A stretch of 29,515 bases of DNA from an uncultured Nitrosopumilaceae archaeon (GTDB lineage: Archaea > Thermoproteota > Nitrososphaeria > Nitrososphaerales > Nitrosopumilaceae): assembly GCA_964531195.1 (NCBI GenBank), contig CAZHDX010000002.1, positions 1 to 29,515 of the forward strand, in the 5' to 3' direction. Of the stretch, positions 1-21,233 are shown one piece after another (the first letter of the stretch is position 1; each line of letters starts with the position of its first letter). The position numbers were made by a program, and so were the translations under genes. The notes under the pieces are model-generated. The model was not told the origin of the DNA and did no database searches. It saw only the letters and a list, made by a program, of their open reading frames with translations.

Positions 1-152
1 CAACAAAATCACTTTCAGAGTCAGTAGGAATTACTGATTCTATTGGATCCGCTGTCATGGCAACAAAATCACTTTCAGAGTCAGTAGGAATTACTGATTC
101 TATTGGATCCGCTGTCATGGCAACAAAATCACTTTCAGAGTCAGTAGGAATT
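1..152 (+). repeat. 60-bp coding tandem repeat (about 2.5 identical copies visible, probably continuing upstream); encodes the 20-aa unit ATKSLSESVGITDSIGSAVM
   Basis: Bases 1-60 and 61-120 are identical, and 121-152 match the start of the unit. A degenerate fourth unit (KSKSFTESINIFD) stays in the same 60-nt register near 181-220. Confidence 0.97.
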
Positions 153-1043
153 GCAGATACAGTAACTCAAGGTTCACCAAAATCCAAATCGTTTACGGAA
201 TCAATTAACATATTTGATCAACTAACAGAATCATTTGCATTGCCGCCTATTCTGAAGCCAGGTGGAGAGGGCGATAGTGGTGATAGGAACCCTCCATCAA
301 TTGCCGGTTCTGCCTTTTCAGATTCGGAATATCCTTTCTCTATTAATGGAACGGGTTATCATTTATTATCACATACCAACCCAATTGAGACAGCAATTCT
401 TACCACAGGTAAGCAAGTTGATGTCAAGATACTAGTATATGATAACTCAGGACCATCAAACATACAGCATATAGGATTGTTTACCAATCTTAACGGACAA
501 AAGCAGGTAAAATCAGATAGCGACACTTACATCCTTTATGAGAAAGATCAGATGCTTCAAGTAAACGATCCAGATCACTTTTTCTCTAATGTAAATGCAT
601 CAACATCAATAATTGGAAATAAACTGCAAATCGACTTCATGATAACATTTGCAAAACCAATGGAAAAATCAGATATAATTCTTGACTTATGGGATTATGA
701 GAGAAACGACGTGCAAACAAAAATAATCAATGCGTGGCAAGTCTTGGAAAACAAGGAACCATTACAGTCTGATACTAATCAAATAATTCAAAATAATTTG
801 ATAAGCAAACCAGATGTATCAGCTAATGATCAAGACAAATTAATTTTGGCAATTAAAGAATGGGCGGGTTATTCTCAAAAATCCATCTCTGACTCGGAAC
901 TATTAGCGTTAATGGGATTAAATGGTCAACACATTCCTTACTGGGTTATGAAGATAACAAAATGGGTCATAGATGGTGAGATCAGCTTGAAAGATTTTAT
1001 CAATGCAATCAACTATCTCCATGATAAAGGGATGATAAAATAA
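3..1043 (+). CDS. 3' part of a large repeat-rich surface protein (5' end lies outside the window): 20-aa repeats, a G-rich linker, a globular domain and a C-terminal 'IPYW...KW..DGEIS..DF..AI.YL' domain
   Basis: The frame is open from base 3 (TKSLSESVG...), so the ATG at 57 is an internal repeat Met. The C-terminal domain matches three other copies in this window. Confidence 0.85.
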   Translation, partial: TKSLSESVGITDSIGSAVMATKSLSESVGITDSIGSAVMATKSLSESVGIADTVTQGSPKSKSFTESINIFDQLTESFALPPILKPGGEGDSGDRNPPSIAGSAFSDSEYPFSINGTGYHLLSHTNPIETAILTTGKQVDVKILVYDNSGPSNIQHIGLFTNLNGQKQVKSDSDTYILYEKDQMLQVNDPDHFFSNVNASTSIIGNKLQIDFMITFAKPMEKSDIILDLWDYERNDVQTKIINAWQVLENKEPLQSDTNQIIQNNLISKPDVSANDQDKLILAIKEWAGYSQKSISDSELLALMGLNGQHIPYWVMKITKWVIDGEISLKDFINAINYLHDKGMIK

Positions 1044-1145
1044 TTGGTGCATTGTAATATTTTTATTGTTTTTAATGCTACAACTGACTCTGCCACAAAG
1101 AATTAATTAAATTTAATGTGAGGGTTTTTAATCATTTGTATATTT

Positions 1146-1919
1146 TCATTTTTTGTGGCCAATGGATTTAAGCCAAGAAATTTTTCTCCAATTAAAAATG
1201 AATATTATGAAAAATGAAAAAATTAAAGTTAGTACTGTCCATGGGAATTCCGGTAATGACTTGTCTGGAGATACAAGTTGGCCCCAACTTGACGGAGGAG
1301 GTATGTTGGGAAATACATTGCCTGATAAATTTTCAGGCCAATTATAAACTAGATTTTTACTTGAATCATACACTGCTGTATAAAACTTATAGTCATCAGA
1401 TCTTCCTATTGTCTCAATAGGGATTCTGAATTCATAAGATGCATGAGGAATTGAACTGTAACGATCGTTTTCATCTGAAATATTACCTATTGCAATTAAT
1501 TTAGGATCATTTTCAATTTTTGTAAGATGGTTACCAGTGGTCATAATACTCCCACCACGAAAAGTTAAAGGGTTTTGAGATCCCAACGTTACCAAAAAAC
1601 ACTTATCATCATAATCCAAACTGTTTTTGAAAGTGGGATTTGAAGTGATGCAAACGAGAGCATAATCAGAGTGTTTGCTAAATTTTTGCTGTGATAGAAG
1701 ATCTAGAAACACATATAGATTTTTGTAATCATGGCCCGTTCTTATCATAAAATTTTCTCCATAACCACTAGTCAAACTAGTTCGCTTCCACTCTTGTAAA
1801 AATGTCCACTTTCCATCCCATATGGTATAATTTCCGTCATCTCGATATGTTGTAAATATTTGATCATCTGAAGTCATGTTTATGTGAGGAAGAATTAACA
1901 GAACTAAAAATTCAAACAT
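1146..1919 (-). CDS. Exported protein with a PEF-CTERM/PEFG-CTERM-like C-terminal sorting signal
   Basis: 257-aa ORF ending LPEFPW, then a hydrophobic helix (TVLTLIFSFFIIFIF), then a basic tail (RKISWLKSIGHKK). This is the tripartite archaeosortase-type signal. Confidence 0.75.
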   Translation of the reverse strand: MFEFLVLLILPHINMTSDDQIFTTYRDDGNYTIWDGKWTFLQEWKRTSLTSGYGENFMIRTGHDYKNLYVFLDLLSQQKFSKHSDYALVCITSNPTFKNSLDYDDKCFLVTLGSQNPLTFRGGSIMTTGNHLTKIENDPKLIAIGNISDENDRYSSIPHASYEFRIPIETIGRSDDYKFYTAVYDSSKNLVYNWPENLSGNVFPNIPPPSSWGQLVSPDKSLPEFPWTVLTLIFSFFIIFIFNWRKISWLKSIGHKK

Positions 1920-1938
1920 TATTAGATGATTAAAAACC

Positions 1939-1959
1939 TAGATTAAAAAATTTAATCTA
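1939..1959. promoter_or_regulatory. Inverted repeat TAGATTAAA-aaa-TTTAATCTA in the divergent promoter region
   Basis: Perfect 9-bp arms with a 3-nt spacer between the divergent starts at 1919 (-) and 2003 (+). The sequence is AT-rich, so chance occurrence is possible. Confidence 0.4.
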
Positions 1960-2002
1960 ATAATACGATCATGTCTTTATACTACAGCTAGGAAAATATT
2001 TT

Positions 2003-2185
2003 GTGAAAGATAAAATTATTGGTATAGGAATTGCAATAGCTATTATTGTAAGTGTGATGATCTTGACTATGCAAGAGGAAAACAGTCTTTCAGATATTGC
2101 AGGAAAACATCTGACACCTTTGCCTGAAGGAAAACATTTGCAACTTTCTCTTAACGAATCGGTAGGAATAAAGTCAGTCTCTTAG
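2003..2185 (+). CDS. 60-aa single-pass membrane microprotein ending in 'LSLNESVGIKSVS'
   Basis: GTG start, N-terminal hydrophobic helix (IIGIGIAIAIIVSVMIL) and a C-terminal motif matching the upstream repeat unit. Confidence 0.75.
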   Translation: MKDKIIGIGIAIAIIVSVMILTMQEENSLSDIAGKHLTPLPEGKHLQLSLNESVGIKSVS

Positions 2186-2309
2186 ATCGAACAATATGTT
2201 CTACGATTTTTAAATTCTTTTGTATTTTGATTTTCATGTTTAAAACAAGCATGAGAGAGGAGCAGATATACTAAAGACTTAAAAATATCTGAAAAGACTA
2301 GCAAAAATA

Positions 2310-2903
2310 ATGACTTCGAAATACGTGGCTTTGACGGTGGGATTGATTGCTATTGCATCAATGGCAGGAATATATTCACTTGATCTGACTTTCAATTCTA
2401 ATCAAAATGATGTTAAAGCTGATAAAATGAAAACCCTGGGTCATCTTCAACTGGTTCTTTATGGACCAGATGGCGACATAAAGGCATATAGACAGACAGA
2501 TAATTTGGTTGTAACAAACGGTGACAACGTGACAGCAAATCGAATCTTTGGAACCACTCTAACTACATCACACGCCTTTAGTGGTGCCTTTAACTATATA
2601 GCAGTAGGAACAGGCTCTACTGCAGTTGCGGCAACTCAGACTGATCTAACTACTGTAGCCAGTGCACACAGACTTGCGACTGTTACTAATGGAGCCATCC
2701 ATGGAACAGCTCAGGTACAGGTTACCTTTCCTGCAAATAGGTTGACAAACTCAAGCTCAGTCAACATTCAGGAATCAGGACTCTTTGATGCGTTTGGAAA
2801 TGGAACTGCAAACTCTAACATGTTTGCCAGACAAACATTTACTGCAATAGGTGTAAACCCAGCAGATACACTCCAAATTACTTGGACTGTTACTGTTACC
2901 TAA
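2310..2903 (+). CDS. Exported beta-rich protein resembling phage tail-collar/tail-fibre base proteins
   Basis: N-terminal hydrophobic segment plus motifs DNLVVT.G.N..A.R, YIAVGTGSTA.AA..T.L, I.ESGLF and MFARQTF..I.....L.ITWTVTV, recalled from phage tail-region proteins. No search was run. Confidence 0.7.
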   Translation: MTSKYVALTVGLIAIASMAGIYSLDLTFNSNQNDVKADKMKTLGHLQLVLYGPDGDIKAYRQTDNLVVTNGDNVTANRIFGTTLTTSHAFSGAFNYIAVGTGSTAVAATQTDLTTVASAHRLATVTNGAIHGTAQVQVTFPANRLTNSSSVNIQESGLFDAFGNGTANSNMFARQTFTAIGVNPADTLQITWTVTVT

Positions 2904-3029: not shown

Positions 3030-3398
3030 ATGAAAATGCAAATAAAAAAAATTGCACTATGTATGTTTTCATTATTTGTCCTAATAACAATCCAATACGT
3101 TAATGCTGATTCTGGTACTACAAGATTAACTACTGACAGTAAAATGTGTCTCGAAAAAGTGGATGTGTGTGTTATGGCAAAAAAATTTCATTTTGCACCA
3201 TTAAAACAAGTCTATGTGGGATTAGGTGCTCTTGATGTAGAATGCAAAACATCCTCTCAACTTGTCCTAAAAGCTTCAGACTATAAACCAGCATGTGTTT
3301 CACCCTCAGTTGTACAAGAGCTGGTAAAAAGAGGATGGGCATTAAGTGAGAATGATCTAGAAAAACTTAGGGCGACATTTGAACCAAATACACCATAA
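3030..3398 (+). CDS. Small secreted protein with a PLKQ-x11-C-x16-C-x11-RGW module
   Basis: Signal peptide ending ...YVNA. The module recurs with identical spacing in ORFs 9173-9760 and 19293-20285. Confidence 0.8.
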   Translation: MKMQIKKIALCMFSLFVLITIQYVNADSGTTRLTTDSKMCLEKVDVCVMAKKFHFAPLKQVYVGLGALDVECKTSSQLVLKASDYKPACVSPSVVQELVKRGWALSENDLEKLRATFEPNTP

Positions 3399-4367: not shown

Positions 4368-4919
4368 TTATTCGTAGCTAGATGGAGTGGTTTGAGATGG
4401 AGATGATTGCGATGGAGCCTGTGAAGGATATCCATTTCCAGGGAATTTCATCATGCCGTGGAACTTCATCATGCCATGGCCGTGCATTTTTCCCATGCCT
4501 TCCATTCCAAACATTTCACCTGAACCCATCTGACGGCCTTGAGAGGTGTACAATACATTACCGTTTCCTGCATCTACTATTACTTGATATGCCATGGACT
4601 TGTCATCAACTATAGTAAACATGTAGACAAGGGATCCTTGGACAATGGCGAGTCTTCCACTTATCACATTACCGTTAGGAACTTTCGAGACAGCCGCATT
4701 AGCAGCATCAACAAATTTTTCTTTGATATTTGATTGTATTAGATTCGGGAGATTAATTGAGCCCTGAATCTGTGGTATTTTTTGTGATGTCCCTGTAGTT
4801 CCAGTAGAGTTGGAAGTTTGAGCCATGACATTTGTTGCTGTTAGAAGTGATGCAACAATTACAACTCCTAAAATTGTAAATGTCTTCCAGTTTTTGAGCT
4901 TGCTTAGATTTTGGGTCAT
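4368..4919 (-). CDS. Secreted PepSY-like domain protein with a His/Met-rich and Ser/Pro/Gln-rich tail
   Basis: Signal peptide ending ...NVMA; PepSY-like 'AANAA.......G....LVY.F.I.......YQVIVDAGNGNVL'; tail MFGMEGMGKMHGHGMMKFHGMMKF. Confidence 0.8.
   Translation of the reverse strand: MTQNLSKLKNWKTFTILGVVIVASLLTATNVMAQTSNSTGTTGTSQKIPQIQGSINLPNLIQSNIKEKFVDAANAAVSKVPNGNVISGRLAIVQGSLVYMFTIVDDKSMAYQVIVDAGNGNVLYTSQGRQMGSGEMFGMEGMGKMHGHGMMKFHGMMKFPGNGYPSQAPSQSSPSQTTPSSYE
4442..4477 (-). repeat. 18-bp tandem duplication encoding HGMMKF twice
   Basis: On the plus strand GGAATTTCATCATGCCGT / GGAACTTCATCATGCCAT, 16 of 18 bases identical. Confidence 0.75.
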
Positions 4920-10358: not shown

Positions 10359-12818
10359 TCAAAAAGATTTTGATCGCTTGCTTGGAGGAATCCATCTTTT
10401 CAGTATCAGTGAACTACTTGTAACAGAGACTGAACTAGCTGCCATTGCGAGTCCTGCAAGAGCTGGATAAAGCAATCCAAATCCAGCAATTGGTATTAGA
10501 ATTGCATTATATACAAAAGCGTAAAAGAGATTTTGCTTTATCTTCAATACCGTCTTTTTACTTATCTCAATTGCAGTAATTACATCTTTAAGATCATCTC
10601 GCAAAAGAATTACGTTTCCTGCTTCTATTGCAATATCAGAACCACATCCTATAGTGATGCCAACATCGGCCTGAGTGAGAGCAGCTGCATCGTTTATACC
10701 GTCTCCGACCATAGCAATCTCCTTTCCTTGCTTTTGGAGCTGTTTAATTACATCAACCTTTTGAGAAGGAAGAACGTTTGCAATTATTCTATCGATTTCA
10801 AGTTCCTTTGCAATTGTCTTGGCAGCCCTTTCATTGTCACCTGTTAGCATCACTACCTCCATACCCATCTTTTTCAATTTCTGCAATGTTTCCTTGGAAC
10901 TACTTTTTGGTGGATCAAATAGAGCAATTATGCCAACTAGTTCTCTGTCAAGTGCAACCAATACTGCAGTCTTTCCTTGTTCTTGCAATTTCTCAATCGA
11001 ACTCTCTGCTGTTTTTACATTGACATTGTTTTCTTGCATGAATACCGTATTTCCGACAAGAATGGTGATTTTATTGAAAACTGTTTTTACTCCTTTTCCC
11101 GGATTTGAAAAAAAATCTGTTGAATCAGAAATTTGAAGTCCAAATTCTTTTGCTTTTTGCACAATTGACTTTGCAATAGGATGTTCCGAGTTTTTTTCAG
11201 CAATAGCTCCAAGCTTAAGCATTTCATTAATGTTATTGTCATCACCAGATGCTTGCGTTATTTGTCTTAATGATATCAAATCAGTAACTTGAGGTGATCC
11301 TTGTGTTAGTGTGCCTGTCTTGTCAAAGACTGTTGTCTTTATTTTTCCTAGGATCTCAAGCGCCTCACCTCCCTTGAATATCACACCATTTTGAGCACTC
11401 TTACTCATTCCGACCATGACTGCAGTGGGTGTTGCAAGACCCAATGCGCAGGGGCATGCCACCACAAGTATTGCTACTGACGGGATCAATGCTGTTGCAA
11501 TAAGATGTGCATCTGCAGTTGATGTAAAATACCAACCTAGGAATGCAGCAAAGGCAGTTGCCATTACTATGAACGCAAAATATCCTGCAACTTTGTCGAC
11601 TAGTCTCTGCATGGGTGGTTTTCTTCCCATGGCTTCTTCTACAAGTTTTACAATTTGGGCAAGCATTGTATCACTACCGACTTTTGTTACATTTACAACA
11701 AGGACTCCTTCGCGATTGATGGTTCCGCCAATTACAGCATCTCCAGCTTTTTTATTTACAGGTATGAATTCACCTGTGATCATAGATTCATCAACAGCTG
11801 AATTCCCTTCAAGGACTATACTATCTACAGGGATCTTCTCTCCTGGCCTTATAGTAACTACATCACCAATCCTGAGTTGATCTATTGGTACGTCAATTTC
11901 TTGGCCATTTTTTGTCATTCTTGTTGTCTTTGGCTGAAGTTCTAACATTTTCCTTATAATTGAGGAAGCTTTTCCCTTGGTTTTGTTTTCAAGATATTTT
12001 CCTAAAATTATAAAAGTGATCACGAATGCAGCTGCATCATAGTAGAGATTGTGCCATGTTAATACTGGAAATGTGTTGAAAACGCTAAACAAATACGCAG
12101 CAGTGGTCCCAACCACTACTAGAGTATCCATATTAGCAGATTTCATTCTTGATATTCTGTAAGCTCCGATGTAGAACCTACTACCGCTTGCAAACTGGAC
12201 TACACTTGCACACACAAAAACAACATAGGCAGCAGTTGAAGTTCCTGCAAGTGGAATGAATCCTAGATATTCTGGGTAACCAAAAATCAATATGGGTATT
12301 GTAAATACGATTCCAATCAGAAACAATTTCTTGAGCTTTTTTGCTTCCAATTCTTCAGTGGATGTGGCCAGGTCCTCGCTTATGATTTGGTAGCCATTTC
12401 TGCAGATTATCTGTCTTATATCTGAGAGAGACAATAGCGCTTGATTATATTCTACTAGAACTTGGCCGTTTCCGAAATTTACAAAAGCATTTTTTATACC
12501 TTCAAGTTCTTTTAATCTAGTTTCAAGCGTAGCTGCATCACTTGAATCAGTCATATTGATTATTTTTGCTGATAATTTCTCATAAACTACATTATATCCT
12601 GCATCTTGAACAGCACTTTCAATATCAGACAAGTTTACTATCAAGGGATCAAATTCTAATGTTGCTTTTTCTGCTGCCAAGTTTACTTCGCATTTTTTTA
12701 TTCCATCCAATCCCATGAGATAATTTTGAATAGAGTTTACACATCCGGCACAATGCATGCCACTTATCTTAATGGCAGTTCGTTTTGTTTGGAATTCTGC
12801 AGGTACGTTCTTTATCAC
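10359..12818 (-). CDS. copA: Cu(I)-translocating P1B-type ATPase
   Basis: N-terminal GMHCAGC HMA domain, TGE actuator motif, CPC in the membrane, DKTGTLT phosphorylation site, EHP, GDGINDA, and the YN and MAASS signatures of P1B-1 ATPases. Confidence 0.95.
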   Translation of the reverse strand: MIKNVPAEFQTKRTAIKISGMHCAGCVNSIQNYLMGLDGIKKCEVNLAAEKATLEFDPLIVNLSDIESAVQDAGYNVVYEKLSAKIINMTDSSDAATLETRLKELEGIKNAFVNFGNGQVLVEYNQALLSLSDIRQIICRNGYQIISEDLATSTEELEAKKLKKLFLIGIVFTIPILIFGYPEYLGFIPLAGTSTAAYVVFVCASVVQFASGSRFYIGAYRISRMKSANMDTLVVVGTTAAYLFSVFNTFPVLTWHNLYYDAAAFVITFIILGKYLENKTKGKASSIIRKMLELQPKTTRMTKNGQEIDVPIDQLRIGDVVTIRPGEKIPVDSIVLEGNSAVDESMITGEFIPVNKKAGDAVIGGTINREGVLVVNVTKVGSDTMLAQIVKLVEEAMGRKPPMQRLVDKVAGYFAFIVMATAFAAFLGWYFTSTADAHLIATALIPSVAILVVACPCALGLATPTAVMVGMSKSAQNGVIFKGGEALEILGKIKTTVFDKTGTLTQGSPQVTDLISLRQITQASGDDNNINEMLKLGAIAEKNSEHPIAKSIVQKAKEFGLQISDSTDFFSNPGKGVKTVFNKITILVGNTVFMQENNVNVKTAESSIEKLQEQGKTAVLVALDRELVGIIALFDPPKSSSKETLQKLKKMGMEVVMLTGDNERAAKTIAKELEIDRIIANVLPSQKVDVIKQLQKQGKEIAMVGDGINDAAALTQADVGITIGCGSDIAIEAGNVILLRDDLKDVITAIEISKKTVLKIKQNLFYAFVYNAILIPIAGFGLLYPALAGLAMAASSVSVTSSSLILKRWIPPSKRSKSF

Positions 12819-12912: not shown

Positions 12913-13335
12913 ATGCCGCTAAAATTGGATGAAACTGACATTGCGATACTAGAATCACTTCTCAAAGATGGAAGAAAGTCATTTAGGCAGGTATCAAGGG
13001 AGATAAATGTAAGCACCCCCACTGTAAAGACCCGATATCAGAGACTCGTCAATATAGGTCTGATAAAGGCTGTCTTGCCTGATATTGATTTAGGAAAACT
13101 AGAAGAAAAGACTAGCAGTAAGTTAGACTACATTCGCGAGAAGACAATCAAGAAGCATCCAATAAAACTTGACAAGGGAACTCTTGTGAAGCTTTCGTGT
13201 GATTATTGCAAGGGATCTGTACACGGAAAACCAAGCATACTAAAAATTGCAAATTTGGAGAGGTTTTTTTGTTGTACATCTTGTAGGTCTTTGTATCAAG
13301 AAAAATACAAGAGAAGGATTGAATCTCTGAAATAA
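12913..13335 (+). CDS. AsnC/Lrp-type HTH regulator with a C-terminal TRASH/YHS metal-binding domain (archaeal CopR/CopT-like)
   Basis: LDETD..IL..L.KDGRKSF...SR...VS.PTV..RY.RL HTH, then CDYC...RFFCCTSC; divergent from copA. Confidence 0.85.
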   Translation: MPLKLDETDIAILESLLKDGRKSFRQVSREINVSTPTVKTRYQRLVNIGLIKAVLPDIDLGKLEEKTSSKLDYIREKTIKKHPIKLDKGTLVKLSCDYCKGSVHGKPSILKIANLERFFCCTSCRSLYQEKYKRRIESLK

Positions 13336-20351: not shown

Positions 20352-21233
20352 TTAAACATGAATCATTCCGTTGCTTGCCAAATATTGTATTCCCTTGACA
20401 AAATCATCATCTGAAATCTGACCGTCTGCCCACCATCCTGCATTTGTTTTAACCCAGCTAGGTATCTGCTGTGATTGATTTGAACTGCTCTCAGTTTTTG
20501 GAACTTTTAAAATTTCTTGATTTATCAAGTATTGTATTCCTTGAATGAATTCAGAATCAGCTAGTTGCCCCTGAGACCACCATTTTGCATTGTTTTTAAT
20601 CCATGTCGGAATTTGTAATTCATCTTGGTGTCCAGAGATTGCAAAAATGTTTGTATCAATTAAATCATATCTGATTTCAGAAATGACGCCATGTTCAAGA
20701 GTTGTTTGTCCAGCAGGAGGATGATTTGTCAAATGAAGATATAACAGCACACCTGTTGCTTTGTCAAATGCCTCCTCGCCACTACTCTCGTTTGCAGAAT
20801 GTGCCGCAGCAACTACGATTCTTTGAGAATTACTAAAGTTTTGAATCTTTTCAGAATAATCAGCATTGTTTTTGTCTATTATAATTGGAATGGGATGGAG
20901 AACGATTATTGGGTAACCAATATCATTTGTAGTTTCATTATAAAATCCTGTTTCTAGATCTAGCACACCTTTTGATTGAATCTTGTTATCGCTTGTGACA
21001 CTTGTGATAATGAAATTGATCTTGTTTGTTCCAACATGACTGCCAAAGGTATAGGTATCTGTAGTGGACACATCACCAAATTTTGTAGAATATGTAAGAG
21101 AATCTCCATTATGGAGACAGATGCTTCCTTGTACACATTCTGAATCCGATTGGGATGAGGCATCGACATTCTCCGAGATTCCGGCTATACTTGTCACCAT
21201 AATCATAATGAGGAAAAATTTCACAGATTTCAT
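20352..21233 (-). CDS. Secreted protein with two tandem C-terminal 'IP.W.K.NA.WW..GQ..D..F..GIQYL' domains
   Basis: Signal peptide ending ...NVDA; two 36-aa C-terminal repeats. Confidence 0.85.
   Translation of the reverse strand: MKSVKFFLIMIMVTSIAGISENVDASSQSDSECVQGSICLHNGDSLTYSTKFGDVSTTDTYTFGSHVGTNKINFIITSVTSDNKIQSKGVLDLETGFYNETTNDIGYPIIVLHPIPIIIDKNNADYSEKIQNFSNSQRIVVAAAHSANESSGEEAFDKATGVLLYLHLTNHPPAGQTTLEHGVISEIRYDLIDTNIFAISGHQDELQIPTWIKNNAKWWSQGQLADSEFIQGIQYLINQEILKVPKTESSSNQSQQIPSWVKTNAGWWADGQISDDDFVKGIQYLASNGMIHV

Follow-up and report, generated by a model that had tools for sequence, protein, structure and literature searches.

Chain-like fibers, in which small protein dimers are carried by a rope, have recently been solved in phages. 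In the podophage A1002, eleven dimers of the 147- and 171-residue fiber proteins (gp40/gp41) are bound serially to gp39, the "nozzle-rope" protein, at its fiber-dock domain, each dimer forming an augmented β-sheet with the rope, and in GP4 the rope protein has a gene of its own and holds five dimers of the 140-residue gp80 (PMC13730344). The dock segments of the A1002 rope (243–468, 3–32, and 96–107) amount to ~268 residues for 11 dimers, that is, ~20–24 residues per dimer. In the myophage Bas63, a rope-like extension of the collar protein bears the neck whiskers, dimers (gp5) with structural homology to both the Sf14 protein and GP4 Fiber-1 (PMC12609058). Here, we analyze a locus at the start of contig CAZHDX010000002.1 from an uncultured Nitrosopumilaceae archaeon (assembly GCA_964531195.1), using the whole stretch of 29,515 nucleotides as the window. 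The locus encodes a protein with 20-residue repeats (gene (a)), a small membrane protein (gene (b)), an exported β-rich protein (gene (c)), and a further exported protein (gene m). By analogy, we propose that it represents a chromosomal cell-surface module of ammonia-oxidizing archaea that may be a cellular version of the phage "rope and dimer" fiber, a proposal whose chances we place just short of even.

Ammonia-oxidizing archaea are globally important nitrifiers. To our knowledge, little is known of how their surface is built beyond the surface layer (S-layer), and annotations are lacking for their giant repeat proteins. A description of this archaeal module did not turn up in the searchable literature.

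The original prediction, made from the sequence of the window, described three plus-strand genes within 3 kb. The three open reading frames (ORFs) are present as it described them, but it overlooked the minus-strand gene m between (a) and (b), and positions 1–2903 hold four genes rather than three:

3–239, plus strand: gene (a), repeat part, defined by ORF translation and the 60-bp tandem repeat.
240–1043, plus strand: gene (a), non-repeat C-terminal part, a lineage-typical modular domain with a conserved ~35-residue tail.
1146–1919, minus strand: gene m, an ORF for a predicted 257-residue exported protein.
1920–2002, no strand: divergent m/(b) intergenic region of 83 bp.
2003–2185, plus strand: gene (b), an ORF for a predicted 60-residue type-II membrane microprotein.
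2310–2903, plus strand: gene (c), coding for a 197-residue predicted Sec-type exported β-sandwich protein.

Residues 1 to ~24 of (c) are signal-like and precede a β-rich domain (~40–197), and all of the motifs that had been quoted for this exported protein fall in conserved columns of an alignment of 59 sequences. Judged from its sequence, (c) is a homolog of the phage family phrog_5417, which it matches with an E-value of 5.9e-19 (69.4 bits), residues 60–196 of the protein aligning to positions 28–156 of the 156 in the profile. No Pfam-A family, the tail-collar and tail-fiber N-terminal families included, is matched by (c) at E ≤ 0.1, and NCBIfam is silent as well. A word-indexed search returns 214 homologs, of which ~90 are archaeal proteins of ~200 residues with a signal-like N-terminus, their named sources being Nitrosopumilaceae and Nitrosotalea. 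Further homologs are proteins of 150–170 residues that have no signal-like N-terminus, and this short form sits in phage structural modules. Its gene directly follows an HK97-type capsid gene and precedes the head–tail adaptor in contig L004 and one other contig, comes after the tape measure gene in a third, and lies between the tape measure and the annotated tail fiber genes in the Achromobacter phage vB_Ade_ART. The phage-form family found by an exhaustive HMMER search comprises 4,726 clusters at 50% identity, mostly of 146–155 residues, which is the same size class as GP4 gp80 and A1002 gp40/gp41.

The fold of (c) points in the same direction. The AlphaFold2 model has a predicted local distance difference test (pLDDT) score above 90 for 126 residues of the domain, and the model of the phage form has a mean pLDDT of 93. 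In a Foldseek search of BFVD, in which an E-value of 3e-12 was obtained, the (c) model matches many predicted viral structures, including uncharacterized Caudovirales proteins, lipothrixvirus proteins, and proteins of the haloarchaeal tailed viruses HHTV-1 and HGTV-1, the last with E-values of 1e-12 to 1e-8 and template modeling (TM) scores of up to 0.87. Weaker matches (E 1e-9 to 6e-3, TM 0.4–0.56) are to proteins annotated as tail fiber or tail-collar fiber N-terminal and to the T4 gp10 C-terminal domain. Against the PDB, Foldseek gives no match to (c) at E ≤ 0.001, and the (c) family, used as sequence or profile query, likewise found nothing in the PDB, Haloferax tailed virus 1 (HFTV1) included.

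Solved relatives were found by exhaustive VIA alignment of both models, archaeal and phage, against 48,161 PDB chains. The top seven chains are all peripheral virion parts for both models. The best is the HFTV1 tail chain BD (PDB 9h4p, residues ~353–508), with Z-scores of 11.5 and 12.2 over 129–145 aligned residues at 18–20% identity. It is accompanied by the phi812 baseplate (9euf_b, Z 7.7 and 9.6), the GP4 "Fiber I" entry chain a (8jou_a, Z 8.6 and 7.4), and the Sf14 neck chain K (9c39_K, Z 6.7 and 6.5), together with the Klebsiella phage KP1 baseplate, phiKZ gp139, and the Bxb1 tail tip. Two of these matches thus fall in the rope-plus-dimer class, because GP4 Fiber-1 and Sf14 are placed there (PMC12609058). 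Of the description of (c) as phage tail-collar-like, the relation to phages holds, with homology to phrog_5417 and a fold resembling that of virion fiber, baseplate, and whisker parts. No Pfam tail-collar family is matched, and the tail-collar structures are among the weaker hits.

In a separate Foldseek search of AFDB, the fold of (c) is also found in other thaumarchaeal families, e.g., the uncharacterized A0RX90, A0RYH4, and A0RX74 (184–378 residues). The fold would therefore appear to have diversified into further cellular families that are missed by sequence searches.

The second component of the module is the repeat array. Across lineages, the repeat periods are 18–22 residues, with the common core [LIV]-[ST]-[DE]-x-[LIV]-x-[LIVM]-[STK]-D-x-[IV], and as many as 75 matched units make up an array, the proteins being 1,000 to >3,000 residues long. 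The repeats of the window match the array of Nitrosotalea devaniterrae with an E-value of 3.7e-12. The contig begins within the array, so that the 5′ end of gene (a) itself is open and 346 of its residues are encoded in the window. Nucleotides 1–152 form a perfect 60-bp tandem repeat (2.5 copies, 100% identity) encoding the 20-residue unit ATKSLSESVGITDSIGSAVM, after which come two degenerate units. The repeat part thus consists of four 20-residue units (2.5 identical, two degenerate) with the core SLSESVGITDSIGSAV. Recovery of the full upstream ORF failed, as no other contig of the assembly (84% complete, 237 contigs) carries the repeat. The 20-residue repeats that had been reported are thus real, but the term "giant" is not verifiable for this copy with its 346 residues.

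The claim of a lineage-typical C-terminus for (a) holds. Homologs of this C-terminal module of ~240–265 residues occur in 76 of the family's 151 genomes, mostly as more than one copy, in proteins of 190 to ~10,000 residues, and a paralog with 46% identity is fused to an unrelated N-terminus on contig C19. This part matches no Pfam or NCBIfam family, and no close relative of the (a) C-terminus is present in the genome collection. The conserved tail of ~35 residues reads IPYW..K..W..G.IS..F...I.YL..KG.I. In the window, a tail of this kind (~37 residues, IP.W..K..W..G.IS..F...I.YL..KG.I) recurs with 49% identity at 20361–20471 on the minus strand, at the end of a 293-residue protein (ORF 20352–21233), and from its sequence it looks like a widespread thaumarchaeal C-terminal tag.

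The two components are found together in phages as well. Both the N. devaniterrae array (E 3.9e-10) and a 409-residue phage repeat protein (E 3.9e-7) match the family phrog_12240, which, like phrog_5417, is labeled "unknown function"; the fragment of (a) in the window (3–4 units) has no PHROG match, being too short to score against phrog_12240. The 409-residue protein is composed of 18-residue units (ADSVTMSDALAFDRGLGV), and its gene is located three genes downstream of a phage homolog of (c). In a second phage-like contig, a (c)-type gene is paired with a gene for a DTLSLADA-repeat protein. The pairing of (c)-type proteins with K.LS[DE]SV..DS repeats in phages, which the original prediction had mentioned, is thus borne out: contigs L004 and L063 carry both, and the arrays of both worlds match phrog_12240. 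Some phage (c)-type proteins additionally bear one repeat-like strand at the N-terminus (RDQVGVTDQV, TDQIGLSDDV, RDSVGVSDSL). In the four readable phage loci, an anecdotal number, this extension is present exactly where a repeat protein is encoded nearby.

Two of the repeat-array matches, G004:C1:65505-66221 and G248:C67:5-835, cross in-frame TGA codons (11 and 4, respectively). This could be an off-frame match over a repeat, gene decay, or something else.

Gene (b) corresponds to the 60-residue membrane-anchored protein described previously. It has a basic N-terminus, a hydrophobic helix of 19 residues, a linker, and the tail ...LSLNESVGIKSVS / GKHLQLSLNESVGIKSVS, whose conserved C-terminal strand GKHLQLSLNESVGIK resembles one repeat core. 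The (b)-type ORFs (56–102 residues) adjoin (c) in at least 17 of 30 loci, also in other families, and are sometimes divergent or downstream. Because of this recurrence across loci and families, (b) is, as far as sequence comparison goes, a real conserved gene. The common architecture comprises an N-terminal helix, a variable linker, and the tail G-[KR]-x-[LYI]-x-[LIV]-x-[LF]-x-E-x-[VIL]-G-[ILM]-K. With the register chosen by eye, the BLOSUM sum of the tail family against the repeat consensus is 188, compared to −85 ± 26 for shuffled tails.

In loci L021, L023, L028, L036, and L038, which belong to relatives of genus g2, a separate (b) gene was not found. The (c) homologs of these loci carry FGITGIKS or SGLIGLKS right after the N-terminal helix, similar to SVGIKS in the tail of (b). 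In these proteins, the dock strand may be built in or fused, in parallel to those phage forms that carry such a strand at the N-terminus.

Gene m is oriented divergently from (b) and (c). The C-terminus of its product contains PEFPW, a hydrophobic helix, and a basic tail (...SLPEFPWTVLTLIFSFFIIFIFNWRK...), which is the feature set of a PEF-CTERM-like sorting signal, and the m homolog of N. devaniterrae ends in ...SIPEFPWPMLSLIISFIPILIINWKK. Among curated hidden Markov models (HMMs), m has no Pfam hit (E ≤ 0.1) and no NCBIfam hit, a PEF-CTERM HMM included, and the leads from the language model (Atlas) are PEP-CTERM (0.90), PEF-CTERM_ARCH (0.89), and CBM9 (0.86). In 21 of the 30 surveyed loci, and in L007, L008, and L010 as well, a homolog of m adjoins (c); in the Nitrososphaeraceae-type loci, it does not. 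Within the Nitrosopumilaceae, m is the most faithful neighbor of (b) and (c), ahead of the giant gene. In L009 (8866–9467), the m homolog beside (c) is in four pieces and is probably a pseudogene; it is intact in the closely related contig L010.

A TATA-like TTTATA is seen at 1977–1982, ~24 nucleotides before the GTG of (b), and a second TATA-like box at 2279–2287 upstream of the ATG of (c), with a spacing of 24–27 nucleotides. The boxes suggest separate leaderless transcripts of (b) and (c), although this is weak evidence in AT-rich DNA of 31–37% GC.

The gene set is conserved in ammonia-oxidizing archaea. With (c) as a single query, 82 of the 301 Nitrososphaeria genomes sampled have a homolog, all of them in the ammonia-oxidizer order, with 69 of 180, 9 of 39, 2 of 4, and 1 of 9 genomes in four families. 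With the N. devaniterrae array as query, arrays are found in 72 of the 301 genomes. Both occur in 53 genomes, giving an odds ratio of 19 (Fisher p 3e-22), values that are descriptive and ignore relatedness. A profile search further detects a (c) homolog in four of five genomes that had appeared to have arrays only, in one of them 7 kb from the arrays. Among the listed matches, in all 28 genomes with both on the same contig, the nearest array is 0.9–15 kb from (c) (median 7.8 kb), in genomes of 1.5–3 Mb.

The core order in the Nitrosopumilaceae is m (divergent), (b), and (c), with the giant gene a few kb off. In two other families (L044, L047, and L048), (c) and the giant gene share a strand, with (c) 17–47 bp upstream, an arrangement that from its spacing looks operonic. 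The cluster is syntenic across 15 genera. Across the Nitrososphaeria, co-occurrence is strong, and genes similar to (b) and (c) recur together in many genomes.

The complete genome of N. devaniterrae has the same cluster. Its giant protein of >2,400 residues contains LamG and NHL domains and fifteen 20-residue units (KSLSDSVSITD plus a polar linker). The giant gene is followed by UDG (minus strand), the m homolog (minus strand), a 79-residue homolog of (b) ending in NFSESVGIKAQP, and a 206-residue homolog of (c), and the locus is flanked by housekeeping genes (UDG, class-II aminoacyl-tRNA synthetase, and DNA primase).

On the basis of the chain-fiber precedents, and because the rope residues per dimer in A1002 are comparable with the 18–22-residue period of the arrays, we propose the following assembly. 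The rope would be the amphipathic strand repeats of 18–22 residues (core [LIV]-[ST]-[DE]-x-[LIV]-x-[LIVM]-[STK]-D) in giant secreted multidomain proteins such as (a). The bead would be the exported (c), docking on each repeat so that a floppy stretch rich in Ser and Thr would become a thick stalk or an adhesive brush. The microprotein (b), one docking strand on a membrane anchor, would serve as a membrane dock that tethers or holds (c) at the membrane, and a two-sided (c) dimer on (b) could possibly tether the giant protein too. Finally, m would be a co-expressed PEF-CTERM-type surface-anchored partner, transcribed from a divergent promoter. Dimerization, strand docking, and the role of each part are inferred from the phage fibers. 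The proposal is also favored by the homology of (c) to a phage family of the bead size class, by its solved structural matches, by the phrog_12240 matches in archaea and phages, by the repeat-like strand on some phage (c)-type proteins, by the linkage of (c) to the arrays, and by the polar linkers in many repeat units. In this tentative picture, whose probability we judge to be somewhat below one half, giant adhesin-like proteins with tens of docking strands would be coated by dimers of an exported phage-type bead, with a 60-residue microprotein tying the assembly to the membrane. It would be the first cellular chain-like fiber if true.

A number of observations weigh against this proposal. 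Sequence and profile searches of the PDB with both repeat arrays give no similarity to any solved chain, the rope proteins included. When the phage homolog was modeled as a monomer, its N-terminal strand was left undocked (pLDDT ~70, no strand). The Z-scores of 6.5–8.6 to GP4 Fiber-1 and the Sf14 whisker are in the range flagged as possibly reflecting only a common arrangement, and the best solved match, HFTV1 (Z ~12), is a domain inside a 953-residue tail protein and not a bead. No expression evidence was found for the locus, the runs that contain it being DNA runs from rock metagenomes. The period of 18–22 residues also suits a β-solenoid, for which the Nitrososphaeraceae-type units (TRSVADSLSIADAIS.RV), with 5–6 hydrophobic positions, are hydrophobic enough. 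The tail of (b) shows no co-variation with the repeat variant of its own genome (permutation p 0.14–0.22). Finally, arrays are not detected, with the single query, in 29 of the 82 (c)-positive genomes.

The period and the hydrophobicity of the Nitrososphaeraceae-type units are the basis of one alternative, in which the array folds by itself into a β-solenoid or a trimeric β-helix shaft, 18–22 residues being typical of one solenoid turn, while (c) is present once per fiber as base or cap, in the manner of the N-terminal attachment domain of phage tail fibers, and (b) primes or anchors the fiber by its one strand. The similarity of the (c) fold to the tail fiber and tail-collar fiber N-terminal domains and to the T4 gp10 C-terminal domain would be in line with such a cap, and the linkage data fit equally well. 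However, the tail-collar-type matches are the weaker ones (TM 0.44–0.56) and have no Pfam counterpart, and (c) is a separate protein of the size of the bead proteins, most of its phage relatives being stand-alone proteins of ~147 residues and not fiber N-termini. Moreover, many arrays have only ~3 hydrophobic residues per 20 and long polar linkers. Many units are poor material for a self-folding core, consisting of a single short amphipathic strand and then a polar Ser/Thr linker, as in KSLSDSVSITD-TTSTATSQH. We give this serious rival a low probability. It is close to what the original prediction had put forward, with (c) as base or cap and (a) as a self-standing shaft, an assignment in place of which the closest solved precedents suggest a (c) bead docking on each repeat.

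Another explanation is that shared regulation or export keeps together the genes of exported proteins that are otherwise independent, namely (c), (b), m, and the giant proteins. In such a loose island of surface proteins, (c) would act alone, e.g., in glycan binding, and the likeness of (b) to the repeats would be that of a generic amphipathic β-strand. The genes neighboring (c) often encode other surface proteins (Big_9/cadherin-like, Laminin_G_3) and glycosyltransferases, and the tightest neighbor in the Nitrosopumilaceae is m rather than the giant gene, which would be consistent with an island, as would be the missing co-variation of (b) and the (c)-positive genomes that have no detectable arrays. 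The linkage, however, holds across four families with different gene orders, including the spacing of 17–47 bp to the giant gene, and phages pair the same two families independently. The motif ([DE]-x-[VIL]-x-[IVLM]-[STK]-D) is also specific, and it is found at the N-terminus of the phage (c)-type proteins as well. For these reasons, we give the island a low probability.

That the genes encode virion components of an archaeal virus, either integrated or decaying, is highly improbable, and we reject this possibility: both families have phage relatives and the DNA directly upstream of the window is missing at the contig end, but the 29.5 kb contain no hallmark genes, the complete N. devaniterrae locus has housekeeping flanks, the synteny extends over 15 genera, the base composition is even across the window, (c) and (b) carry export or membrane signals, and all archaeal (c) proteins fall on one side of a single branch. 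The earlier statement that the window has no capsid, terminase, or integrase gene is correct, and portal and tape-measure genes are likewise not found in it, the DNA upstream of position 1 lying beyond the contig end. Nor were prophage hallmarks found near the cluster in N. devaniterrae. Of the three outcomes that the original prediction had named as refuting it, none was observed, although the DNA directly upstream of the window is missing.

The origin of (c) was considered with a maximum-likelihood tree of 107 sequences, which is unrooted and samples the phages from the neighborhood of one query. The 65 phage-type proteins lie on one side of a branch with 100/98 support, and the archaeal signal-bearing proteins lie on the other. 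P0022, which alone seems to break this pattern, is an archaeal gene call truncated at its N-terminus. The tree fits one ancient transfer or common ancestry. Since the viral family is much larger and wider, compared to a single archaeal order for the cellular one, we would guess that a transfer from virus to cell is the more economical direction. The claim of a module domesticated from a phage does not follow from this one well-supported branch between archaeal and phage-type sequences, as the tree is unrooted.

The conserved four-part gene set ties giant proteins to two small partners, and the assembly mechanism proposed for it is a specific one, taken from recently solved phage fibers. As two of the parts are homologous to very large phage families of "unknown function", any function established here would carry over to thousands of phage proteins, and vice versa. 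If the proposal is true, the principle of a virion appendage would be used in a cellular surface organelle, which would stand beside the tailocins, the type VI secretion system (T6SS), and the contractile injection systems, but for fibers. It would also provide a real function for a 60-residue microprotein and a new way to anchor or stiffen giant archaeal surface proteins.

The rest of the window contains ordinary cellular genes, such as MsrA/MsrB, an epimerase, a PMT-type glycosyltransferase, a Cu-ATPase, an ABC transporter, and regulators. Directly 3′ of (c), positions 3030–3398 (plus strand) encode a 122-residue exported protein with a WING-49 domain (NCBIfam NF058652, E 2e-16). A neighborhood resembling copper handling comprises a PepSY-like secreted protein with the Met/His-rich tail MHGHGMMKFHGMMKF (4368–4919, minus strand), an HMA-domain P-type ATPase (10359–12818, minus strand), and an AsnC/TRASH-domain regulator (12913–13335, plus strand). 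Scans of the four genes of the locus with Pfam, NCBIfam, and PADLOC gave nothing useful for the module. A reading as a defense system was also considered and was rejected, there being no PADLOC hit and no enzymatic domains.

Compared with the known systems, (c) differs from the tail-fiber and tail-collar N-terminal domains and the T4 gp10 C-terminal domain in that those are fused to the fiber shaft, whereas (c) stands alone. In the archaeal virus HFTV1, the related fold is one domain in a large tail or baseplate protein. With phrog_5417, the alignment extends over nearly the whole profile, but the archaeal (c) proteins are set apart as a group of their own and bear a signal peptide. With the chain-like or whisker fibers of GP4, A1002, VP1, Bas63, and Sf14, the archaeal module would share a small β-sandwich subunit of ~140–170 residues, the fold being similar at the moderate Z-scores of 6.5–8.6, whose gene lies near that of a second protein. 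The serial binding segments of that second protein are documented in the phages, while for the archaeal repeats they are presumed. Those fibers are parts of a virion, whereas the archaeal module is found in a cellular chromosomal context with no virion genes, places its repeats within giant multidomain secreted proteins, and adds to them the microprotein (b) and the candidate PEF-CTERM partner m.

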